Shown piece by piece: positions 2,150 to 64,000 of a stretch of DNA of 64,000 nucleotides. A program made the position numbers and the translations under genes. The stretch comes from a virus (Duplodnaviria > Caudoviricetes), in the IMG/VR virus record IMGVR_UViG_2654587976_000001, positions 64,871 through 128,870 of that record, one strand, 5' to 3'. Position 1 is the first letter of the stretch. Every line of letters begins with the position of its first letter. The notes beneath the pieces were generated by a model that was not told where the DNA came from, ran no database searches, and worked only from the letters and a program-made list of their open reading frames with translations.

Positions 2150-2281
2150 GTGTACTGGATTGAATGGATTGAGGATGGGGAGAAGAAAAGTATTGTTGCT
2201 GAGGGCTGGGTGGAATGGGTCACAATCCTGGAAGACCTTTATCAGCAACGATTTGAGTATGTTGAATGGAAGAGAATTTAA
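2150..2281 (+). CDS. yopG: YopG-like 43-aa Trp-rich protein (not in ORF track)
   Basis: GTG start after GAGGAG; MYWIEWIEDGEKKSIVAEGWVEW... Confidence 0.7.
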   Translation: MYWIEWIEDGEKKSIVAEGWVEWVTILEDLYQQRFEYVEWKRI

Positions 2282-2329
2282 AAAACACAAGTCTAAATAA
2301 AATTAATGTAAAGGGAGAAGGTTTTTAGA

Positions 2330-2875
2330 ATGGAAGAATTAAATCATTATAGAAAATGCCTTAATGTGAATTACGAATCCATTATTTTATTGGTAGCAAC
2401 CCCAAAAGGGAAATATCCTTCAAAAAGTGTTGATTTAAAAACAAAAGAATTTGTTAATGAGATATTATATAAAGAGTATTACATTGATATTTATGAAAAA
2501 GGTAAAAAAGAAATTCTTCAGGATACAGCGTTTAAACTTTTTACATTGCCATTAATCGGAGATTCATTTGATCGCAAAGTAAATAGGACTGTTGCGAATA
2601 GCAGGGCATCTGAAGATAAAGTTGAGGCATTTTTTGTGTTACAAAGTATTAATAAAGAATTTCAAGAAAACAATTCAAATATCAACATAGATAAAGCAAT
2701 AAAGAGAGGAGAAGAAAGTGCTAAACTCTTTTTAAATTGTTACCCATTAGGTACACATGATGTTTCCGTGATACCGGTTGAAAGAGGGAACGAAGGGGTA
2801 GAGCTATTACTTGACATGAAGTTTAAAGATAATGCCTCTGAGTACTATTTTGATTTCACATATTTTGGCGGTTGA
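2330..2875 (+). CDS. Hypothetical protein
   Basis: 181-aa AT-rich ORF. Confidence 0.7.
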   Translation: MEELNHYRKCLNVNYESIILLVATPKGKYPSKSVDLKTKEFVNEILYKEYYIDIYEKGKKEILQDTAFKLFTLPLIGDSFDRKVNRTVANSRASEDKVEAFFVLQSINKEFQENNSNINIDKAIKRGEESAKLFLNCYPLGTHDVSVIPVERGNEGVELLLDMKFKDNASEYYFDFTYFGG

Positions 2876-3213
2876 TGGACATGGATGAAACATTTATCAA
2901 TAATCTAAATAAGAACAAATTTGATAATGAAGAGTTTAAAAATGGTTTTAGTGCAGGAGCTGAATACAAAGATCAAATGGAAAAACGGATACGTGATCTT
3001 GAATCAGTGTTGCTTGGGTTTATTGGGTATGAAGACGAGTGGCTACTAACAAAAGCAGGTTTAAATAAACGTACTAAGTCAGTCTTAGTCAACATGATTA
3101 TTGATCAGCGAAATCTTACCCGTGCTCTTTATAAAAAATTAGATGAAGAAACAAAAAAGAAATTAAAAAGTGAAATTGAGATGTGCATTTGGCCGGGAGA
3201 AAGTGAGCAATAA
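2872..3213 (+). CDS. Hypothetical protein
   Basis: 113-aa ORF overlapping the previous stop. Confidence 0.65.
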   Translation: MMDMDETFINNLNKNKFDNEEFKNGFSAGAEYKDQMEKRIRDLESVLLGFIGYEDEWLLTKAGLNKRTKSVLVNMIIDQRNLTRALYKKLDEETKKKLKSEIEMCIWPGESEQ

Positions 3214-3295
3214 AGACAAATACGTTTAATTATACGTATCGAATTTGCAAACTTTTTAAATGTATTTATAATCTTCAATAAGGAGTTGATTATAA

Positions 3296-3706
3296 ATGAA
3301 TTGGGTATCTTACCCCTCTATTTTACACTTTGCAAATGATGGTATTACAGTAACCTTTCCAGACCTTCCTGGGTGTGTAACCTGTGGATCGAATGACACA
3401 GAGGCAATTAGCATGGCAAAAGAAGCTTTAGGGCTTCATTTATATGGGTTAGAAATGGACGGAGAGAAGTATCCTGGCCCTTCACCGTTTTCGGAAATTA
3501 AGACAGCGGAAAATGAAGTTGTGTGCTTGATTGATATACCTATGCATGCATTCCGCGATGAATATAGACGTAAATCAGTCAAGAAAACATTAACTATTCC
3601 TGCGTGGTTGAATGAAGTGGCTGAAGAAAAGAACATTAATTTTTCTCAGGTGCTGCAGGATGCATTAAAAGATAAACTCGGACTAAATATCTTTAAGGCA
3701 CAATAA
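3296..3706 (+). CDS. hicB: HicB-family antitoxin with no adjacent hicA
   Basis: V-x-FPDLPGCVT-x-G...EA..MAKEAL N-domain and C-terminal KKTLTIPAWL RHH-like region. Confidence 0.88.
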   Translation: MNWVSYPSILHFANDGITVTFPDLPGCVTCGSNDTEAISMAKEALGLHLYGLEMDGEKYPGPSPFSEIKTAENEVVCLIDIPMHAFRDEYRRKSVKKTLTIPAWLNEVAEEKNINFSQVLQDALKDKLGLNIFKAQ

Positions 3707-3776
3707 GAATCCTTATTGTGCCGGTTTACATAAAATACGAATTTTAAACAGATAAGTATTCCTTAAAAAATAATTA

Positions 3777-3826
3777 GCATAAAAATAAAATAAATACTTG
3801 TAATTCTGACAACTCTAATGTATATT
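3777..3826 (+). promoter_or_regulatory. SigA promoter of aimR with upstream TAAAAATAAAATA element
   Basis: TTGTAA 3798-3803, 17 nt, TG-TATATT 3821-3826. Confidence 0.65.
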
Positions 3827-3867
3827 ATAAACAAGGGAACATTAGTTGGGAAGGGGTGGAGTAACCA

Positions 3868-5007
3868 ATGAATCTTAAGCAGATGATTAAGAATGAATGT
3901 GAAAAAGACAACCAGCTCGCAGCGAAACTCTCAAAAATAGCAGGGTACGAAAAGGTTAATGGTTTTTACAAATTCATCAACACCCCAGAGAAAGAAATGG
4001 ACAACTTAGGCGGTTTAATTAATATTGTTAAAAGCTTGTTTCCTGATAATGAGGAGCAGCTTCTAAGTGATTACTTCTTATCACTGGATCCCAACAAAAA
4101 ATGCGCTAGACAATCTGTTGAATACTCCGATATCAATCAATGGGATTCATTAACAGACAAGATTATTTTAAATTTATGCCACTCAAAAAACACAACAAGT
4201 CAAGAATGGGGTAACATCTACAACATACATAGAAAGCTATATAAAAACGAAATCTCAATACCAGAAGCAATAAGAGAATGTGGGAGATGTAAAGCTCCAG
4301 AAATGTCATTTTTTTCAGATGCAATGCTGATGTATAAATACTTGAATATTGGTGAGTTCGGATTGATGAAAAGCACCTTAACACTTTTAGATTTTAAAAG
4401 CTTACCAGAAGGATTTATAAAAGATTCGTACAAAAGTAGAGTGTCAATGTTAAAAGCGAATATAAGCTTAAACGAAAACAATTTAATCGAAGCAAGGAAA
4501 CATTCAAATATTGCAATAATGCAGTCCAATGTGAACCGAATATGTTTCTTTGCACATCTGACAATAGGTAATACCCTAATTTTCGAAAATTATGAAGAAG
4601 CTATGCTGGCGTATGTTGAGGCAAAGAAGTATGTTCTGAATGATACTCATGAAGAAATGCTAAATGGCGCTCTTTGCTTCTTAGCTAATGTATGGAACAA
4701 GGAAAATCTATGGGTTAACTATGAATCAAATGAAATCAAATATCAACAGCTAAGGGCTTTTTATTACATAAAAAGTAATAATCTCGACAAGGCTAACGAA
4801 TTATTAGAAAGCTTATCAAAAAGAGATCAAGATGAAAATGAATTAGGATTTTATTTTTATTATAAAGGTTTAATATCGAGGCAAAAATCTGATTTTTTTA
4901 AATCAATAACATATTTTAAAGAATCAGATGATAAATATTTTATCCAATTGGCAATAATAGAACTCGAAAAATTAGGCTGTGACCCGGAGCTGCTAAATTT
5001 AATTTAG
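3868..5007 (+). CDS. aimR: Arbitrium receptor AimR (RRNPP family, HTH plus TPR)
   Basis: 379 aa; AimR-like N-terminus (KLSKIAGYEKVNGFYKF); directly upstream of the SAIRGA peptide gene. Confidence 0.97.
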   Translation: MNLKQMIKNECEKDNQLAAKLSKIAGYEKVNGFYKFINTPEKEMDNLGGLINIVKSLFPDNEEQLLSDYFLSLDPNKKCARQSVEYSDINQWDSLTDKIILNLCHSKNTTSQEWGNIYNIHRKLYKNEISIPEAIRECGRCKAPEMSFFSDAMLMYKYLNIGEFGLMKSTLTLLDFKSLPEGFIKDSYKSRVSMLKANISLNENNLIEARKHSNIAIMQSNVNRICFFAHLTIGNTLIFENYEEAMLAYVEAKKYVLNDTHEEMLNGALCFLANVWNKENLWVNYESNEIKYQQLRAFYYIKSNNLDKANELLESLSKRDQDENELGFYFYYKGLISRQKSDFFKSITYFKESDDKYFIQLAIIELEKLGCDPELLNLI

Positions 5008-5036
5008 AATTTAGTACTTGAAAGGAGGTGAATTTA

Positions 5037-5168
5037 ATGAAAAAAATTATTTTCGGTACAGCCATTTTAGCATCATTAGCAATTTCATTCATTGCAGGTC
5101 AACATTCAGTTAATACGGCATCAGCTTCTGATGAGATCTCTGTAGCAAGTGCAATTCGGGGAGCTTAA
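5037..5168 (+). CDS. aimP: Arbitrium pre-pro-peptide AimP, mature signal SAIRGA (not in ORF track)
   Basis: AAAGGAGGTG RBS; MKKIIFGTAILASLAISFIAGQHSVNTASASDEISVASAIRGA*. Confidence 0.98.
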   Translation: MKKIIFGTAILASLAISFIAGQHSVNTASASDEISVASAIRGA

Positions 5169-5200
5169 TAATACAACAGGATACTACATAATCAATGGTT

Positions 5201-5234
5201 AGACGTTTGATCCAGTGGATCAGGCGTCTTTTCT
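5201..5234 (+). terminator. Intrinsic terminator after aimP
   Basis: AGACGTTTGATCC-AGT-GGATCAGGCGTCT hairpin followed by a T-run. Confidence 0.85.
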
Positions 5235-5246
5235 AATTTTAAGAGA

Positions 5247-5283
5247 ATGTTCCAGAAATTCATAATATAAAAAACAAGAACAT
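5247..5283. promoter_or_regulatory. AimR operator
   Basis: ATGTTC-N25-GAACAT: 6-bp inverted repeats 25 bp apart, between the terminator and the aimX RBS. Confidence 0.9.
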
Positions 5284-5295
5284 GGAGGAATTAAA

Positions 5296-5451
5296 ATGAA
5301 AAAGCATTTCGGACAATCACTTTCTTATGAGGATATGGCTAAGGGATACATGGAAATGGGAGACCTTAACTTAGAAATTTCCCAGGAAGATAATCATCTT
5401 GAAAATGAAGCAGAAATGGTTAGATCAAAATATAAAGCAAAGGTATCCTAA
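5296..5451 (+). CDS. aimX: AimX, 51-aa MazE-like protein (not in ORF track)
   Basis: GGAGG RBS; MKKHFGQSLSYEDMAKGYMEMGDLNLEISQEDNHLENEAE... resembles the Bacillus MazE C-terminal helix. Confidence 0.93.
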   Translation: MKKHFGQSLSYEDMAKGYMEMGDLNLEISQEDNHLENEAEMVRSKYKAKVS

Positions 5452-5514
5452 TGAAGATTAAAGTCAAATCAGCAGACATTTTAACACATACATAGGGGAT
5501 GTGTTATTTGTCTT

Positions 5515-5564
5515 GAATAAAAATAAAATAAATTGTTGCATATTATTCTAGCAACATATATAAT
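5515..5564 (+). promoter_or_regulatory. SigA promoter of the sro operon with TAAAAATAAAATA element
   Basis: TTGCAT 5536-5541, 17 nt, TATAAT 5559-5564. Confidence 0.75.
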
Positions 5565-5600
5565 GAAGTTACAAGATGAACGTTGTTGGGAGATGAAACA

Positions 5601-5813
5601 ATGGAAACAACCAGTGCCACTCAAAAGGAAGAGTTGAAGATTACATCATTAAGACAATATCAATACATAAAACAACTAAAGAACTTCACACGAGTCAATC
5701 TCCACCTAGAGGATCCAGATGTGTTTACACCTAATAATGTAACTACAATGAGAAAAAACCATAAAGAATACAACCTCATTAAAGAACAAAAAAATTCTAT
5801 AAAATGTATTTAA
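5601..5813 (+). CDS. yopM: YopM/SroA-like small protein
   Basis: First ORF after aimX; METTSATQ... start preferred; synteny. Confidence 0.6.
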   Translation: METTSATQKEELKITSLRQYQYIKQLKNFTRVNLHLEDPDVFTPNNVTTMRKNHKEYNLIKEQKNSIKCI

Positions 5814-5827
5814 GGAGTAAAAATAAA

Positions 5828-6058
5828 ATGAATAATAAATATTATACAGAAGAAAACAAGGCTAAAGTTTGGAAAAAGCATATGATCGTTTTAAAGTTTC
5901 TAGAGCAGCCTGAGATAGCAGTAGCTTATAATGAGTTCCTACGAAGAGAAGCGACAAGTGATGAATGGGTTGGGTTCGAAGAGGAGCTTTATGAGGAATT
6001 GACGGGGATGCCAATTATAAACGTCTGTAAGGACGAGAGGGTAAATGTCCTAAACTGA
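5828..6058 (+). CDS. SroB-position protein (phi3T_93-like candidate)
   Basis: AAGGAG RBS before MNNKYY; position in the sro operon. Confidence 0.6.
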   Translation: MNNKYYTEENKAKVWKKHMIVLKFLEQPEIAVAYNEFLRREATSDEWVGFEEELYEELTGMPIINVCKDERVNVLN

Positions 6059-6096
6059 ATTTTATTATAGGATAAAAATAAATTAGGTGTGATAAA

Positions 6097-6261
6097 ATGA
6101 ATACAGACATCTTAATTAACGCTCTTAAAGAATACGACATGTTAAAGCAAATGGAAATCTGTAACGCCAATATAATGCTGCTGAGTAATATTCAAGGTGA
6201 GAATGAATGGATTGTTGCGTGGAAAGAATTTGATCAATACTTAATGAAAAAAATGATATGA
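6097..6261 (+). CDS. 54-aa SroC-position protein (not in ORF track)
   Basis: AGGTG RBS; MNTDILINALKEYDML...; fills the gap before yopP. Confidence 0.65.
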   Translation: MNTDILINALKEYDMLKQMEICNANIMLLSNIQGENEWIVAWKEFDQYLMKKMI

Positions 6262-6270
6262 GGTGTCATT

Positions 6271-7329
6271 ATGGAAGCTCAAAAGAAAGCGTCAACACTA
6301 AGGGATTATTCAATATACAATAACATAAATAGGTGGTTTGATGAATTAGATTTAAGAAACAGGGATCGAGAAACTGGAGAAATTGAAAAGTCTAATACTA
6401 GAGCCACGTATGAAAGGCATATAAGAGAGTTTTTCAACCACTATGCTGCCAAGGATATTGAATATTTAACTGAGAGTGACCTGGCGATTAAGAAGAGTGA
6501 CCTGTATGATTATCGAACCCATTTGGCTAAAAATAAAAGCAACTCCAATTCAACAATTAACAATAAGATTGCCGCACTGAAAAGTATGATTAAGTACCTT
6601 GAATCTGAACATGAGTGTGATGCATCTGTATTTAATTTTAGACCTCTTCCAACAGAAAAGAACCCAGCAGGCTCTTTTGAAGGAATATCTGAAGCTGATG
6701 AATTTGCTGAGGTAGCGTATGTTACTGAGCGTCAGAACAGATTAATGAAAAAGATGTTTATTTTGTTTAGTGCACGTACTGGTGGGCGTAAATCAGAGGT
6801 GCTTAGAGTTGGGTGGGATGATATTACTTATTCAGAAAAGCACCAATGCTATCTCGTCAACTTTAAAAAAACTAAGCAAAAAAAGGCTAGACCAGTTGGG
6901 ATTTCCACTGCTTTTTATGAAGAGTTGTTGCTGTTAAAGCAAGAGTATGTGGAACATGAGCTTTTATTTCATAAGTTAACAGTTGATTCAATACAGGATA
7001 TGTGGAATCGCGTATGTAGAGTTATGGGCATTCCCAAAGAAAGAAAGATAACTCCGCATAGTTTACGCAATACTGCAACAAACTTTTCTTACAGCGTTAA
7101 TGGTGATATTAAAAAAGTGGCAGCGTTCTCTGGCCACAGTAATATCAATACTTTAAATGACCATTATTTAGTCAATGAAAGGGATTATTCTCAAGATCCA
7201 GGGGTTTTGGTTGATCAAAAAGAAGACATGTCCTTTTTAGAAGATGTTACCTTAGAGCAATATAAAGAATTCTTTTTAAAATCAGACATGTATATACAGA
7301 ATAAACTTAAAATGTTTTTGAACAAGTGA
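6271..7329 (+). CDS. yopP: YopP/SroD tyrosine-recombinase-family protein
   Basis: TGGR, KTK, HSLR, SGH and DHY motifs; synteny. Confidence 0.9.
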   Translation: MEAQKKASTLRDYSIYNNINRWFDELDLRNRDRETGEIEKSNTRATYERHIREFFNHYAAKDIEYLTESDLAIKKSDLYDYRTHLAKNKSNSNSTINNKIAALKSMIKYLESEHECDASVFNFRPLPTEKNPAGSFEGISEADEFAEVAYVTERQNRLMKKMFILFSARTGGRKSEVLRVGWDDITYSEKHQCYLVNFKKTKQKKARPVGISTAFYEELLLLKQEYVEHELLFHKLTVDSIQDMWNRVCRVMGIPKERKITPHSLRNTATNFSYSVNGDIKKVAAFSGHSNINTLNDHYLVNERDYSQDPGVLVDQKEDMSFLEDVTLEQYKEFFLKSDMYIQNKLKMFLNK

Positions 7330-7405
7330 TACAAATAATCATATAAAAGCTTTACTTGCTTATGAAAATAATGATAAATTTAATATGATTATGTGAGGTG
7401 ATAAT

Positions 7406-8755
7406 GTGTCTGAAGTTTTGTTGACAACGGATAAACTTTATAAGTTAAAAACTGAAATAGAGGAAAATCTTAATGATATTAAAAATGATCCCAATATGGT
7501 GAAGGAATTAAAAGCCACAATGGCGGACAAATACAAGGCACTCCCTGGTTATATCCAAGAAATTTTAAATAATAATGATAACAACGTACAGCGTTTAAAC
7601 GAAAAAGAAGTGTACATTGTTTCAAAAGAGATGTATTCAATTCTTGGGACGCAAGCCTTAGATCCGTCAAATTATTTTCCAACCAGATTGGCAAAAGAGC
7701 TTGAAGGTGGGAGAGTATTCGCCGGTGAAGAAGTAGTTAAGCTCCCATACAAGTTTAAAAATGTGATTAAAATTAAAGAGGATAACTATGTCACTTCCAT
7801 TACTGCCAAAGAACTGAGTGAGTTATATAATAGCTCCATCCTGCAGTACAATTACAACACTCAGCGTGAAGGAAAGTACATTAAGGGCAGCCTTATCCCT
7901 GTACCTAAAACAAATCCTAAATCAGTCGATGAGATCAAAGAATTGTTTATTAAAGGCGATTTAATTGTGTCAATGTTAACTTTTAACGCTCGTCTTGGAA
8001 CTTCTGATGGTGATGAAGAAGTTGAATATGATCCAAGCGATCAAACCCTCACTGTAACACGAGGAACCTTATTAGATGCTCTAGATGGGTACCATCGAAT
8101 TTCAGGTATTGTTAAGGCCATTGCTGAAGTCCCTGAATTAGATCAACCATTCATTTTAAATGTGCTCAATTATGATGAAGAAAAGGCTAAGGTTCACTTT
8201 GCTCAAATGAATACAATAAACCCAGTTGAAAAATCCAGAATTGAAGAATTAGGACAAAAACGGTATTCTTCAACCGTGGTCGAGCAACTGAAATTTAAAA
8301 GTGAACTTAAAAATAAAATAAGCCCACAAAGTGACATTGGTCTTGATAGCAATTTCCTTGTGACATATTACACTTTATCCGAAGCTATAGACGATGCATT
8401 TGAGTTGAAATCTCGAAAAGATGCATTAAAAATTTCAAAATACCTGGTTGACTTTTTTGATAACCTTTTTTATGCTTTCCCAGATGAATTTCTTGAAGAT
8501 GATTTATCGTCCATTAGAAAGCAATCATATATTAATCATAACGTAATGTTTTACGGTTATGTTTATTTGGCCAAGAAGATGAAGGAAAACAATATAGAAC
8601 TAAACAAGCTTGAAAGTATCCTTAATACAATTGACTTTAGTAAAAGCGGAAGAGTGTTTGAAGAATTAGGAAGACAAAATAATGAGATTCAACTAAAGAA
8701 TGTTATGAAGAAGAAACTTAAGCGAATATTTTATGATGAAATTGCTGTTGTTTAA
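7406..8755 (+). CDS. yopQ: YopQ/SroE DndB/ParB-like protein
   Basis: LDGYHR (DGQHR-type) motif; synteny. Confidence 0.85.
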   Translation: MSEVLLTTDKLYKLKTEIEENLNDIKNDPNMVKELKATMADKYKALPGYIQEILNNNDNNVQRLNEKEVYIVSKEMYSILGTQALDPSNYFPTRLAKELEGGRVFAGEEVVKLPYKFKNVIKIKEDNYVTSITAKELSELYNSSILQYNYNTQREGKYIKGSLIPVPKTNPKSVDEIKELFIKGDLIVSMLTFNARLGTSDGDEEVEYDPSDQTLTVTRGTLLDALDGYHRISGIVKAIAEVPELDQPFILNVLNYDEEKAKVHFAQMNTINPVEKSRIEELGQKRYSSTVVEQLKFKSELKNKISPQSDIGLDSNFLVTYYTLSEAIDDAFELKSRKDALKISKYLVDFFDNLFYAFPDEFLEDDLSSIRKQSYINHNVMFYGYVYLAKKMKENNIELNKLESILNTIDFSKSGRVFEELGRQNNEIQLKNVMKKKLKRIFYDEIAVV

Positions 8756-8774
8756 AGCCTAAAGGAGAATTAAT

Positions 8775-9758
8775 ATGAGTGAAATGTATAATGCTGAATT
8801 GAAGGAAAAGTTTTTAGAGAAATACGAAAGTGAAGCAACAAGAAACCATTATTGGCTAAGGCTAAGGGATTTCTCAGCTACAGAAAAAATACTTCAAAAA
8901 GACATATTTAATTTTTCTTTGGAAGAGCTGCGTACGTTATTTTTCGATTTGGATAGCAAATCTATAGACTCATTAAGAGGAGCACGAGCTGTAATTGGAC
9001 AATACACAACCTGGGCAATGGAAAATGGCTTGGCAAACAGTAACATCAACAAAGTGTATCAGATACAGGATGGTGACTTAAAGCAGTTTATAGATAAAAA
9101 CAAAAAAACACTATTCACTAATAAAGAAGTAGAAGAGTATGTTGATTTTATGATTAATTATCAGGATAAGGCCATGATACAGGCTATTTATGAAGGTATA
9201 GATGGTTATCAGCATTCAGAGTTACTGAATTTAACAGGTGACGATTTACTCGATGATAACAAGGTAAAGCTAGTAGATGATAAACATGGTGTAAGAATAA
9301 TTACTGTAAGCGATAAATGTTATGAGTTACTTAAGCGTGCTAATGACCAAAGAACATATCATCTTAGCAATGGTTCGCCAGATAGTAGCCTTAAAAACAA
9401 ATTTGCCACATTAGTTAAAAGCGAAAATATTTTTAGGCTAAAATATAAGAGCTCTAATCAGAGTATGAAAGCTGACAAATTTTTAGTTCATCGTTCTTTT
9501 AGTCAGTTTCAAAAATTTTTAGAAGAACCCTTCTTTACACCTAAAAATCTTATCAATTCAGGAAAGCTCAACATGGCGTATGCGATATATAAAGAGAAGG
9601 GTGAATTAAAAGTACCTGATTATAAACAAATAACTCGACAATATGGGTTCTTGAATGAAGACGCGGAGTTTAATTCACAAACACTGAGGAAAGTAGTGAA
9701 TATGGAGAACTTAGAAAAATATTGTATCAAGTCTGAAGTAATTGAGACTAATTCTTAA
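8775..9758 (+). CDS. yopR: YopR/MrpR/SroF master repressor (degenerate recombinase fold)
   Basis: [12 protein letters not shown]-terminus; lacks the catalytic R and HxxR; synteny. Confidence 0.88.
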
Positions 9759-45254: not shown

Positions 45255-45605
45255 ATGGGAGCTGCTAAACAGTTATACGTTAAGCGCAGTCACTTTGTAA
45301 CTTTGGATGAAGCAAAAGAAAATACGCAAGTACATATGAAGAATGGTGGTTCTTACACTGCTTTAAAAGGAGAGCTGATTGCGACCAATTTTGAAGGGGA
45401 TCAAATGGTTATCACACAAGAGCAGAAAGCAGATTATATCCCAGTACCAATGTCAGAGCTTTCTGATTTAAAAGCTAAAATGGCCAAAGGTTACATGGAA
45501 ATGGGAGATATTAATTTAGAAATGTCTGAAGCATTCCATTATGCTGAAAATGAAGCAGAAACAACTACAAACAGCTTAGTTAACGGGGAATATAAAGAAT
45601 ATTGA
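45255..45605 (+). CDS. yosL: YosL-like protein with C-terminal MazE mimic
   Basis: MAKGYMEMGDINLEMSEAFHYAENEAE; directly upstream of nrdI. Confidence 0.88.
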   Translation: MGAAKQLYVKRSHFVTLDEAKENTQVHMKNGGSYTALKGELIATNFEGDQMVITQEQKADYIPVPMSELSDLKAKMAKGYMEMGDINLEMSEAFHYAENEAETTTNSLVNGEYKEY

Positions 45606-63060: not shown

Positions 63061-63100
63061 TTGTACTTAAACTATAACGCTTGTGACGATTATCGGGATG
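63061..63100. other. Probable attR junction inside pbuX
   Basis: PbuX similarity starts abruptly at VTIIG; GC step at about 63080. Confidence 0.75.
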
Positions 63101-64000
63101 ACCTTAATGCCGGTCGCGATGAATCATATTGCCGGCGGGGAAGGCAGCGAGGATTTCGGTGATCCGGCTAACCTTGCCCTCGGATTTACGGTGCTCGTCA
63201 TCATCGTGCTGCTTTATCGGTTTACAAAAGGATTTTTGAAATCCATTTCGATTTTAATCGGCATTGTCATCGGGACGGCCATCGCATATTTTATGGGAAA
63301 AGTGCAATTTGACAATGTGGCGAATGCTGACGCAATTCAGATGATTAAACCGTTTTATTTCGGGACGCCGACATTTCATGCGGCACCGATTATTACGATG
63401 TCCATCGTTGCCATTGTCAGCCTTGTTGAGTCAACCGGCGTCTATTTCGCTCTCGGTGACCTGACAAACCGGCGCCTGTCTGAACGTGATTTAGCAAAAG
63501 GCTACCGCGCGGAAGGCCTGGCGGTATTCATCAGCGGCATTTTTAATGCTTTTCCGTACACGGCTTATTCCCAAAACGTCGGCCTCGTGCAGCTGACGGG
63601 AATTAAGAAAAACGCGGTCATCGGTGTCACGGGCGCACTTTTAATGCTCTTCGGCCTTTTTCCGAAAATCGCAGCCTTCACGACCATCATCCCGTCTTCG
63701 GTGCTGGGAGGCGCGATGGTGGCCATGTTCGGCATGGTCATTTCCTACGGCATTAAAATGCTCAGTCAAATTGACTTTAAAAAGCAGGAAAACCTTCTGA
63801 TCGTCGCGTGTTCGGTCGGATTGGGACTCGGTGTAACCGTCGTTCCCGATATGTTTAAGCACCTGCCGTCTTACTTAAATCTGCTGACCACAAACGGAAT
63901 CGTCGCCGGAAGCTTTACCGCCGTGATTTTGAATATTGTTTATAATATGATTCCTAAAACGAAAAAAACCCTTGATGTGACAAGGGTTCAAGAGGGTTAG
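63083..64000 (+). pseudogene. pbuX: 3' part of host xanthine permease (NCS2), split by the prophage
   Basis: ESTG, YSQNVGLVQLTG NAT signature, VLGGA; N-terminal part missing. Confidence 0.92.

Follow-up and report, generated by a model that had tools for sequence, protein, structure and literature searches.

The question raised by this locus is whether an SPbeta-like prophage residing in the pbuX gene of its host carries a complete arbitrium peptide-communication module and, if so, whether that module uses the signal of phage phi3T. The window, meaning the whole 64-kb stretch of DNA that was analysed, comprises bases 64871-128870, the right half, of the 128,870-bp IMG/VR provirus record IMGVR_UViG_2654587976_000001. 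Our analysis of its sequence supports a complete clade-2 (SPbeta-type) arbitrium module with a predicted signal identical to that of phi3T, and very probably this module is the functional arbitrium switch of an SPbeta-like pbuX prophage of about 129 kb in a host of the Bacillus amyloliquefaciens group. Published work already covers the arbitrium system, its signal, the type of operator, the function of AimX and the pbuX locus, and the AimR, AimP and AimX set of the window, the exact proteins of which are present at NCBI, is an uncharacterised allele of this known system. As an intact and correctly read example of well-studied phage communication, the locus therefore matters little by itself.

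What is observed here is, in the first place, the identity of the genes and their arrangement, all on the plus strand. The aimR gene (3868-5007) encodes a receptor of 379 amino acids (aa) with an N-terminal helix-turn-helix (HTH) and a tetratricopeptide repeat (TPR) peptide-binding domain, and an earlier note on this DNA, which had named it as AimR, was borne out by matches above the cut-offs to Pfam PF22871 (327 bits, E 1.4e-97; cut-off 26.7) and NCBIfam NF038310 lysogeny_AimR (247.6 bits, E 2e-73; cut-off 70). Beginning 29 nucleotides (nt) past the aimR stop codon, aimP (5037-5168) encodes the 43-aa pre-pro-peptide that had also been claimed, in place of which the automatic list of open reading frames (ORFs) gives a 46-aa frame with a GTG start (5028-5168). 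The ATG at 5037 has an AGGAGG approximately 8 nt upstream, and the product, MKK...VASAIRGA, matches NCBIfam NF033802 AimP_fam over its full length (77.8 bits, E 5e-22; cut-off 35). Its last six codons indeed read SAIRGA, and the predicted mature peptide is identical to that of phi3T. AimP as a whole is 74% identical to phi3T AimP, with ASASDE and VASAIRGA kept, the latter placing SAIRGA directly behind the same VA. N-terminal lysines and a hydrophobic segment make up a predicted signal peptide, and the pre-peptide is presumably processed.

The signals downstream were likewise found as they had been described. Behind aimP lies an intrinsic terminator (5201-5239, plus strand) with a 13-pair stem (5201-5229), a 3-nt loop and a T-rich tail, and behind the stem comes TTTCTAATTT. 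Nothing else in 3600-6300 looks like a terminator; the hairpin is the dominant helix in an RNA fold of 5166-5300, and the terminator is nearly identical to those of phi3T and BUCT083. The AimR operator, a perfect 37-bp palindrome of the form ATGTTC-N25-GAACAT (5247-5283, plus strand), begins 18 bp past the terminator stem and approximately 7 bp past the T-rich tail. It is the single exact match in the 64 kb, against a chance expectation of 0.05, and a match arose in 5 of 100 shuffles; when up to two mismatches are allowed the window contains 6 sites against 4.7 expected, so that no further operator sites stand out. Its identity as an operator is predicted, with an architecture and half-site as published for phi3T, for which 6-bp inverted repeats around a spacer of approximately 25 bp are described, the text giving two perfect ATGTTC repeats (PMC6458997). 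The phi3T record KY030782 (L001:4413-4552), unlike that text, reads AAGTTC in the left arm. Finally, aimX (5296-5451, plus strand), with a GGAGG of its own, encodes a 51-aa homologue of phi3T AimX that is 59% identical to it and retains the MAKGY motif (with Y18) and the EDNHLENEAEM core.

From these parts, a switch may be proposed in which peptide processing, peptide binding, anti-termination and the link to MazF are taken by analogy from the literature on phi3T and SPbeta. The aimR and aimP genes would be co-transcribed, and the 43-aa AimP would be exported, trimmed outside the cell to SAIRGA and re-imported by the host Opp permease. As long as AimR is free of peptide, its dimer would occupy the ATGTTC-N25-GAACAT operator and allow transcription to proceed into aimX by anti-termination, after which the 51-aa AimX, a MazE-like antitoxin, would neutralise host MazF and thereby favour lysis, assisted later by a YosL-like protein with the same motif. 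Once SAIRGA has accumulated it would lock AimR in a form unable to bind DNA, and with aimX silent, the sro/yop operon downstream and its MrpR/YopR repressor would establish lysogeny.

Does the terminator really hold the key to this switch? The main competing view is that AimR acts as a classical activator on a separate aimX promoter, or that aimX acts as an RNA, as it does in SPbeta. In earlier papers AimR is indeed said to bind the promoter region of aimX (PMC6458997; PMC9232636), SPbeta lacks an AimX ORF, and a weak promoter-like site (TTAAGA-16-CATAAT, 5239-5266, 9/12 matches) lies inside the operator. However, the operator starts only 18 bp past the stem with no strong promoter between the two, and anti-termination has been stated outright: free AimR acts as an anti-terminator at the aimP terminator and so raises aimX expression, which AimP prevents (PMC13220667), as is also stated in bioRxiv 10.1101/2025.11.23.689978. 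The anatomy of terminator and operator fits this published mode of action. Terminators go unmentioned in bioRxiv 10.1101/2021.09.20.460909 and PMC9232636, and the 'anti-terminator' of PMC11945551 refers to lambda N and Q only. As for the acting species, in phi3T it is the AimX protein and not the RNA that was shown to be active, as a MazE-like antitoxin of host MazF with YosL as a second such antitoxin, and Y18 of AimX was mutated to alanine to test the MazE likeness (bioRxiv 10.1101/2023.04.27.537455). A homologous AimX ORF, conserved at the protein level, is moreover present in 27 of the 28 loci that we surveyed (20 found in viral contigs and two in genome contigs by scanning, together with five phage records and the window). 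We therefore consider either variant of this explanation improbable, and retain anti-termination with an AimX protein as the preferred mechanism.

How far the likeness to known systems extends can be seen from phi3T (KY030782; PDB 5ZVV/5ZVW), which has the same order aimR-aimP-terminator-operator-aimX-sro/yop, an identical predicted mature peptide, the GAACAT half-site with a 25-bp spacer, and a 51-aa AimX with a MazE-like core. The differences lie in the protein identities (74% for AimR and AimP, 59% for AimX) and in the operator, a perfect palindrome in the window versus an AAGTTC left arm in the phi3T record; at the DNA level, the locus is approximately 75% identical to phi3T, its laboratory derivatives and BUCT083. 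SPbeta (with YopK as AimR and YopL as AimP) shares the architecture and the 6-N25-6 operator design, and the residues that anchor the RGA end of its peptide are kept in the window AimR (equivalents of N202, N206, R228, T236, N239 and D360), whereas its AimR is only 39% identical, its signal is GMPRGA, its operator reads ATCACT-N25-AGTGAT and its aimX is an RNA without an AimX ORF. The prophage of ATCC 13952 (GVVRGA; PDB 9F36) has the same integration gene pbuX and, by database labels, the same host group, but its AimR is another specificity allele, matching the window AimR at E 1e-82 as against 9e-193 for phi3T AimR.

The phi3T structures 5zvv/5zvw are the closest solved structures to the window AimR (E 9e-193). 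In order to compare the peptide pockets, residues in contact with the peptide in SPbeta AimR were taken from PMC6458997 and mapped through an eight-sequence alignment. Conservation of these contacts is observed without exception: 28 of the 28 mapped positions are identical between the window AimR and that of phi3T, including the 10 at which phi3T departs from SPbeta. By comparison, the AimR of P0003 and P0004, which are likely SIIRGA-type, differ at three contact positions (M194L, L201F and F358S in the numbering of the window AimR), and those of SPbetaL3 and BUCT082 at more than three. The DNA-contact positions, from a list in the same paper, are identical to phi3T AimR at 16 of 18, including all three base-reading positions of the HTH. 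A response of this AimR to SAIRGA, and hence sharing of the signal with phi3T, is therefore predicted with good support.

We must however take into account several points that weigh against reading the locus as a functional switch tuned like that of phi3T. Maturation of the peptide, binding of SAIRGA by AimR, binding of the operator and anti-termination would all be carried over from phi3T and SPbeta by analogy; the host MazEF and Opp lie outside the provirus record, which does not include the host genome; and an ecological overlap with phi3T, a phage of B. subtilis, is assumed. The list of contacts was derived by alignment from the SPbeta complex rather than from a structure of phi3T AimR with SAIRGA, and the alignment is uncertain near SPbeta Q299/E300. 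Furthermore, 60-residue segments of the TPR domain share only 58-83% identity with phi3T, so that second-shell changes could alter affinity or promiscuity. This leads to the second alternative, in which the signal is the same but AimR has drifted, with SIIRGA, SASRGA or SPSRGA bound equally well or better and cross-talk with phi3T asymmetric or weak. Promiscuity is indeed common in this group, since phi3T itself responds to SIIRGA, SASRGA, SPSRGA and GVVRGA (bioRxiv 10.1101/2025.10.13.681967), and a tree of the TPR part leaves the SAIRGA receptors of subtilis type, those of amyloliquefaciens type and the SIIRGA receptors in a three-way split without resolution. On the other side stand the 28 identical contacts, as compared to the three differences in P0003 and P0004, and the fact that the cognate aimP encodes SAIRGA in five of the five loci of the window allele. 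We regard a drifted receptor as improbable, and prefer the reading of a pocket functionally equivalent to that of phi3T.

The RNA-library data, which gave no usable sign of transcription, also count on the negative side. In runs X1 and X2 the whole stretch is found in contigs longer than 10 kb at flat depth, which may be DNA carry-over or the source strain. Run X5, a food metatranscriptome, gave short contigs of low depth over aimR and a contig over 4934-5565 (aimP to aimX) that stems from a variant allele; since this evidence consists of contigs, a single transcript across aimP and aimX cannot be shown from it. Raw reads of run X24 include nine partial reads on the terminator that come from a different element. 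That the locus would be a silent remnant in a decaying prophage, controlling nothing, is nevertheless hardly credible: although direct signs of expression are absent from these libraries and B. velezensis often carries SPbeta-like prophages in fragmented form (bioRxiv 10.1101/2021.11.22.469490), every ORF is intact, the 128.9-kb provirus has a completeness rating of 100%, four more proviruses carry this allele intact, and the peptide contacts have been kept in spite of a near-saturated synonymous divergence from phi3T, with the same codon used at 101 of 207 conserved residues.

The prophage itself was said in the earlier note to be integrated in pbuX, and this too held up. Adjoining the right end of the prophage is the 3' part of the host xanthine permease gene pbuX (63083-64000, plus strand); this last ORF of the window matches TIGR03173 (E 3.3e-112) over profile positions 121-407 of 407 only, which means that the prophage interrupts pbuX, as read at the right end, the provirus record stopping at the left end. 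SPbeta-like prophages of B. amyloliquefaciens and B. velezensis are known to integrate at this gene (bioRxiv 10.1101/2021.11.22.469490). The assignment of the host to the B. amyloliquefaciens group/B. velezensis comes from the NCBI labels of members of the AimR sequence cluster, which has 43 members. On public contigs the exact sequences of AimR, AimP and AimX are found 15, 26 and 21 times, respectively, and relatives are named as AimR or AimP family at NCBI. As for phi3T, its integration site is presumably kamA of B. subtilis, where that of the window prophage is pbuX.

What then follows from the shared signal? If both the signal and the receptor pocket are identical, the two phages should hear each other in a shared environment, and cross-talk with phi3T is a reasonable prediction, although the idea itself is not new. 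Together with five other major peptide families, SAIRGA is said to account for 80% of sequences, and many phages have already been grouped under it (PMC6458997). Phages with the same signal behave alike despite dissimilar genomes (bioRxiv 10.1101/2025.10.13.681967), and phages of the pbuX type have been used to demonstrate arbitrium cross-talk across species (PMC13220667). Cross-talk through shared or nearly shared phage signals, also across Bacillus species, is thus an active topic, in which the published work mostly concerns signals that are near-identical rather than identical. Here, a phage of B. subtilis and one of the B. amyloliquefaciens group would form a natural pair for cross-species signalling through an identical peptide. 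Likewise, nature here provides a second SAIRGA receptor, which shares its pocket and 74% of its residues with that of phi3T and offers a test case for how residues outside the pocket tune affinity or promiscuity.

The arbitrium finding is otherwise correct but ordinary, and only one aspect, the cassette structure that emerged from the comparison of the 28 loci, may merit further study. It should be noted that the scan of a genome collection with AimR, in which two loci were confirmed from 76 pattern matches, gives no estimate of prevalence across species genomes. SAIRGA is encoded by 10 of the loci (five of the window allele, including the window, and five of phi3T type), SASRGA by seven, SIIRGA by six, SPSRGA by four and GMPRGA by SPbeta. 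In the four further proviruses with the window allele, AimR is 94-100% identical, and aimP, operator and aimX are intact. The perfect operator ATGTTC-N25-GAACAT occurs in 13 of the 28 (six of these carry the exact 37-bp sequence of the window), AAGTTC-N25-GAACAT in eight, the degenerate AAGTTC-N25-GACCAT in six, and the ATCACT type in SPbeta. Two backbones can be told apart: one, phi3T/B. subtilis-like, has AAGTTC as left arm and ...TLAS at the end of AimX, and the other, amyloliquefaciens-like, has mostly ATGTTC as left arm and ...KAKVS at the end of AimX.

When the window is compared to amyloliquefaciens-type sister proviruses that encode another peptide (L014-L027, with SIIRGA, SPSRGA or SASRGA), DNA identity drops sharply over a stretch that comprises the TPR part of aimR and aimP (approximately 4050-5200, plus strand). 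Promoter, the first 60 or so aimR codons, terminator, aimX and sro/yop are near-identical, at 96-99% from 3768 to about 4050 (only one to three mismatches in 3779-4043) and 89-100% over 5268-7367, whereas the region between (about 4070-5260) is only 51-83% identical and, for the SIIRGA and SPSRGA alleles, the divergence stops at approximately 5180-5200, just before the terminator. SIIRGA and SPSRGA sisters share the operator of the window; those with SASRGA have the degenerate AAGTTC-N25-GACCAT. A divergent stretch between flanks of 95-100% identity looks like a recombining specificity cassette. The step is also found at synonymous positions, as conserved residues use the same codon as the sisters at 54-56 of 57 in codons 1-60 and at 70-109 of 143-199 in codons 80-379, which is beyond the reach of a stronger protein constraint on the HTH and thus points to recombination inside aimR. 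Compared to phi3T, codon use agrees at approximately 50% in both parts of aimR (24/45 and 101/207), indicating that the SAIRGA allele of the window is old and not a recent import. A recent transfer from phi3T was considered separately and rejected, as DNA identity to phi3T is uniformly 59-83% over flanks and cassette and same-codon use is approximately 50%.

A maximum-likelihood tree of the AimR TPR part (27 rows; L028, with an AimR truncated at 280 aa, was dropped) joins the SPSRGA receptors of both backbones, and likewise the SASRGA receptors, at nodes with starred support, while the two SAIRGA groups and SIIRGA form the split mentioned above. SAIRGA, SPSRGA and SASRGA are each found on B. 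subtilis-type as well as B. amyloliquefaciens-type backbones. We therefore propose that the TPR half of aimR together with aimP constitutes a homologously recombining pherotype cassette, with old signal lineages maintained by balancing selection, a reading for which we regard the case as evenly balanced. What look like its anchors are the HTH-coding 5' arm and the 3' arm of terminator, operator and aimX, so that DNA-binding specificity would stay with the backbone. Exchange of the cassette would account for near-identical pbuX-type prophages carrying SAIRGA, SIIRGA, SPSRGA or SASRGA, and the near-saturated synonymous divergence between the backbone versions would mark old lineages under balancing selection, a trans-lineage polymorphism like that of quorum-sensing pherotypes. 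Co-clustering of AimR and AimP has been noted (PMC13220667); the texts read do not describe breakpoints within aimR, which their supplements may document, and our literature search returned no paper in which 'pherotype' and arbitrium terms occur together. If the cassette reading is true, the choice of communication partner forms a module of its own, which evolves apart from the switch that it governs. Such a structure would explain why a few signals are common to many phages, and would supply the breakpoints for the horizontal transfer that a 2025 preprint proposes for arbitrium systems.

Upstream of aimR, a promoter-like site (TTGTAA-17-TATATT, 3798-3826, plus strand) was found in a consensus scan with 9/12 matches and may drive the gene; the surrounding stretch is 98-99% identical among related amyloliquefaciens-type proviruses. 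Directly upstream of aimR is a HicB-like antitoxin gene (3296-3706, plus strand; PF15919, 5e-13) with no recognisable HicA beside it. This gene is part of an accessory slot (approximately 2268-3700) that is variable among otherwise near-identical proviruses.

Downstream of aimX, the sroA-F/yopM-R lysogeny operon (5604-9758) follows on the plus strand in the gene order of phi3T_92-96, starting with three small ORFs. It includes a YopP-like tyrosine recombinase (6271-7329; Phage_integrase PF00589), a YopQ/SroE-like protein (7406-8755; DndB PF14072, 5.8e-16) and the MrpR/YopR master repressor (8775-9758; MrpR_C_cat PF22823, 5e-26, and MrpR_N_CB PF22822, 3e-16). The DndB family is associated with DNA sulfur modification.

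A search of the provirus record with AimX retrieved a 116-aa YosL-like protein (45255-45605, plus strand), the C-terminal part of which carries a second AimX/MazE-like motif with 61% identity over AimX residues 13-43 (E 5e-9). This motif (MAKGYMEMGDINLE) is nearer to the AimX of its own phage (MAKGYMEMGDLNLE) than phi3T AimX (MAKGYEEMAAINSI) is, a hint that the two MazE-like copies in one phage have co-evolved or exchanged sequence by gene conversion. The middle of AimX (5340-5375) is dimorphic, reading YMEMGDLNLEIS or YEEMAAINLVIS in proviruses that are 95-100% identical in the DNA on either side. The food-metatranscriptome contig differs at the same AimX positions and, in addition, by an insertion and a deletion of one base each.

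Two of the surveyed records call for a remark. Locus L030 (NZ_JBHVTC010000023.1), labelled Streptomyces sp., is a Bacillus SPbeta-type SASRGA locus almost identical to L021-L024, and its label probably reflects contamination or mislabelling of the assembly. Phage SPbetaL5 (L007, OQ921345) carries a phi3T-like aimR and a SAIRGA aimP; its aimR was matched in two pieces, is annotated as two overlapping coding sequences and appears frameshifted in the record. Finally, at the left end of the provirus, outside the window (L008:1-1277), lies a 386-aa Rap-family receptor (RapH_N and TPR). After it comes a Phr-like secreted peptide of 39 aa, whose end coincides with the first base of the provirus record; the two form a second peptide-signalling pair as in phi3T and a B. 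velezensis prophage (PMC8027211).

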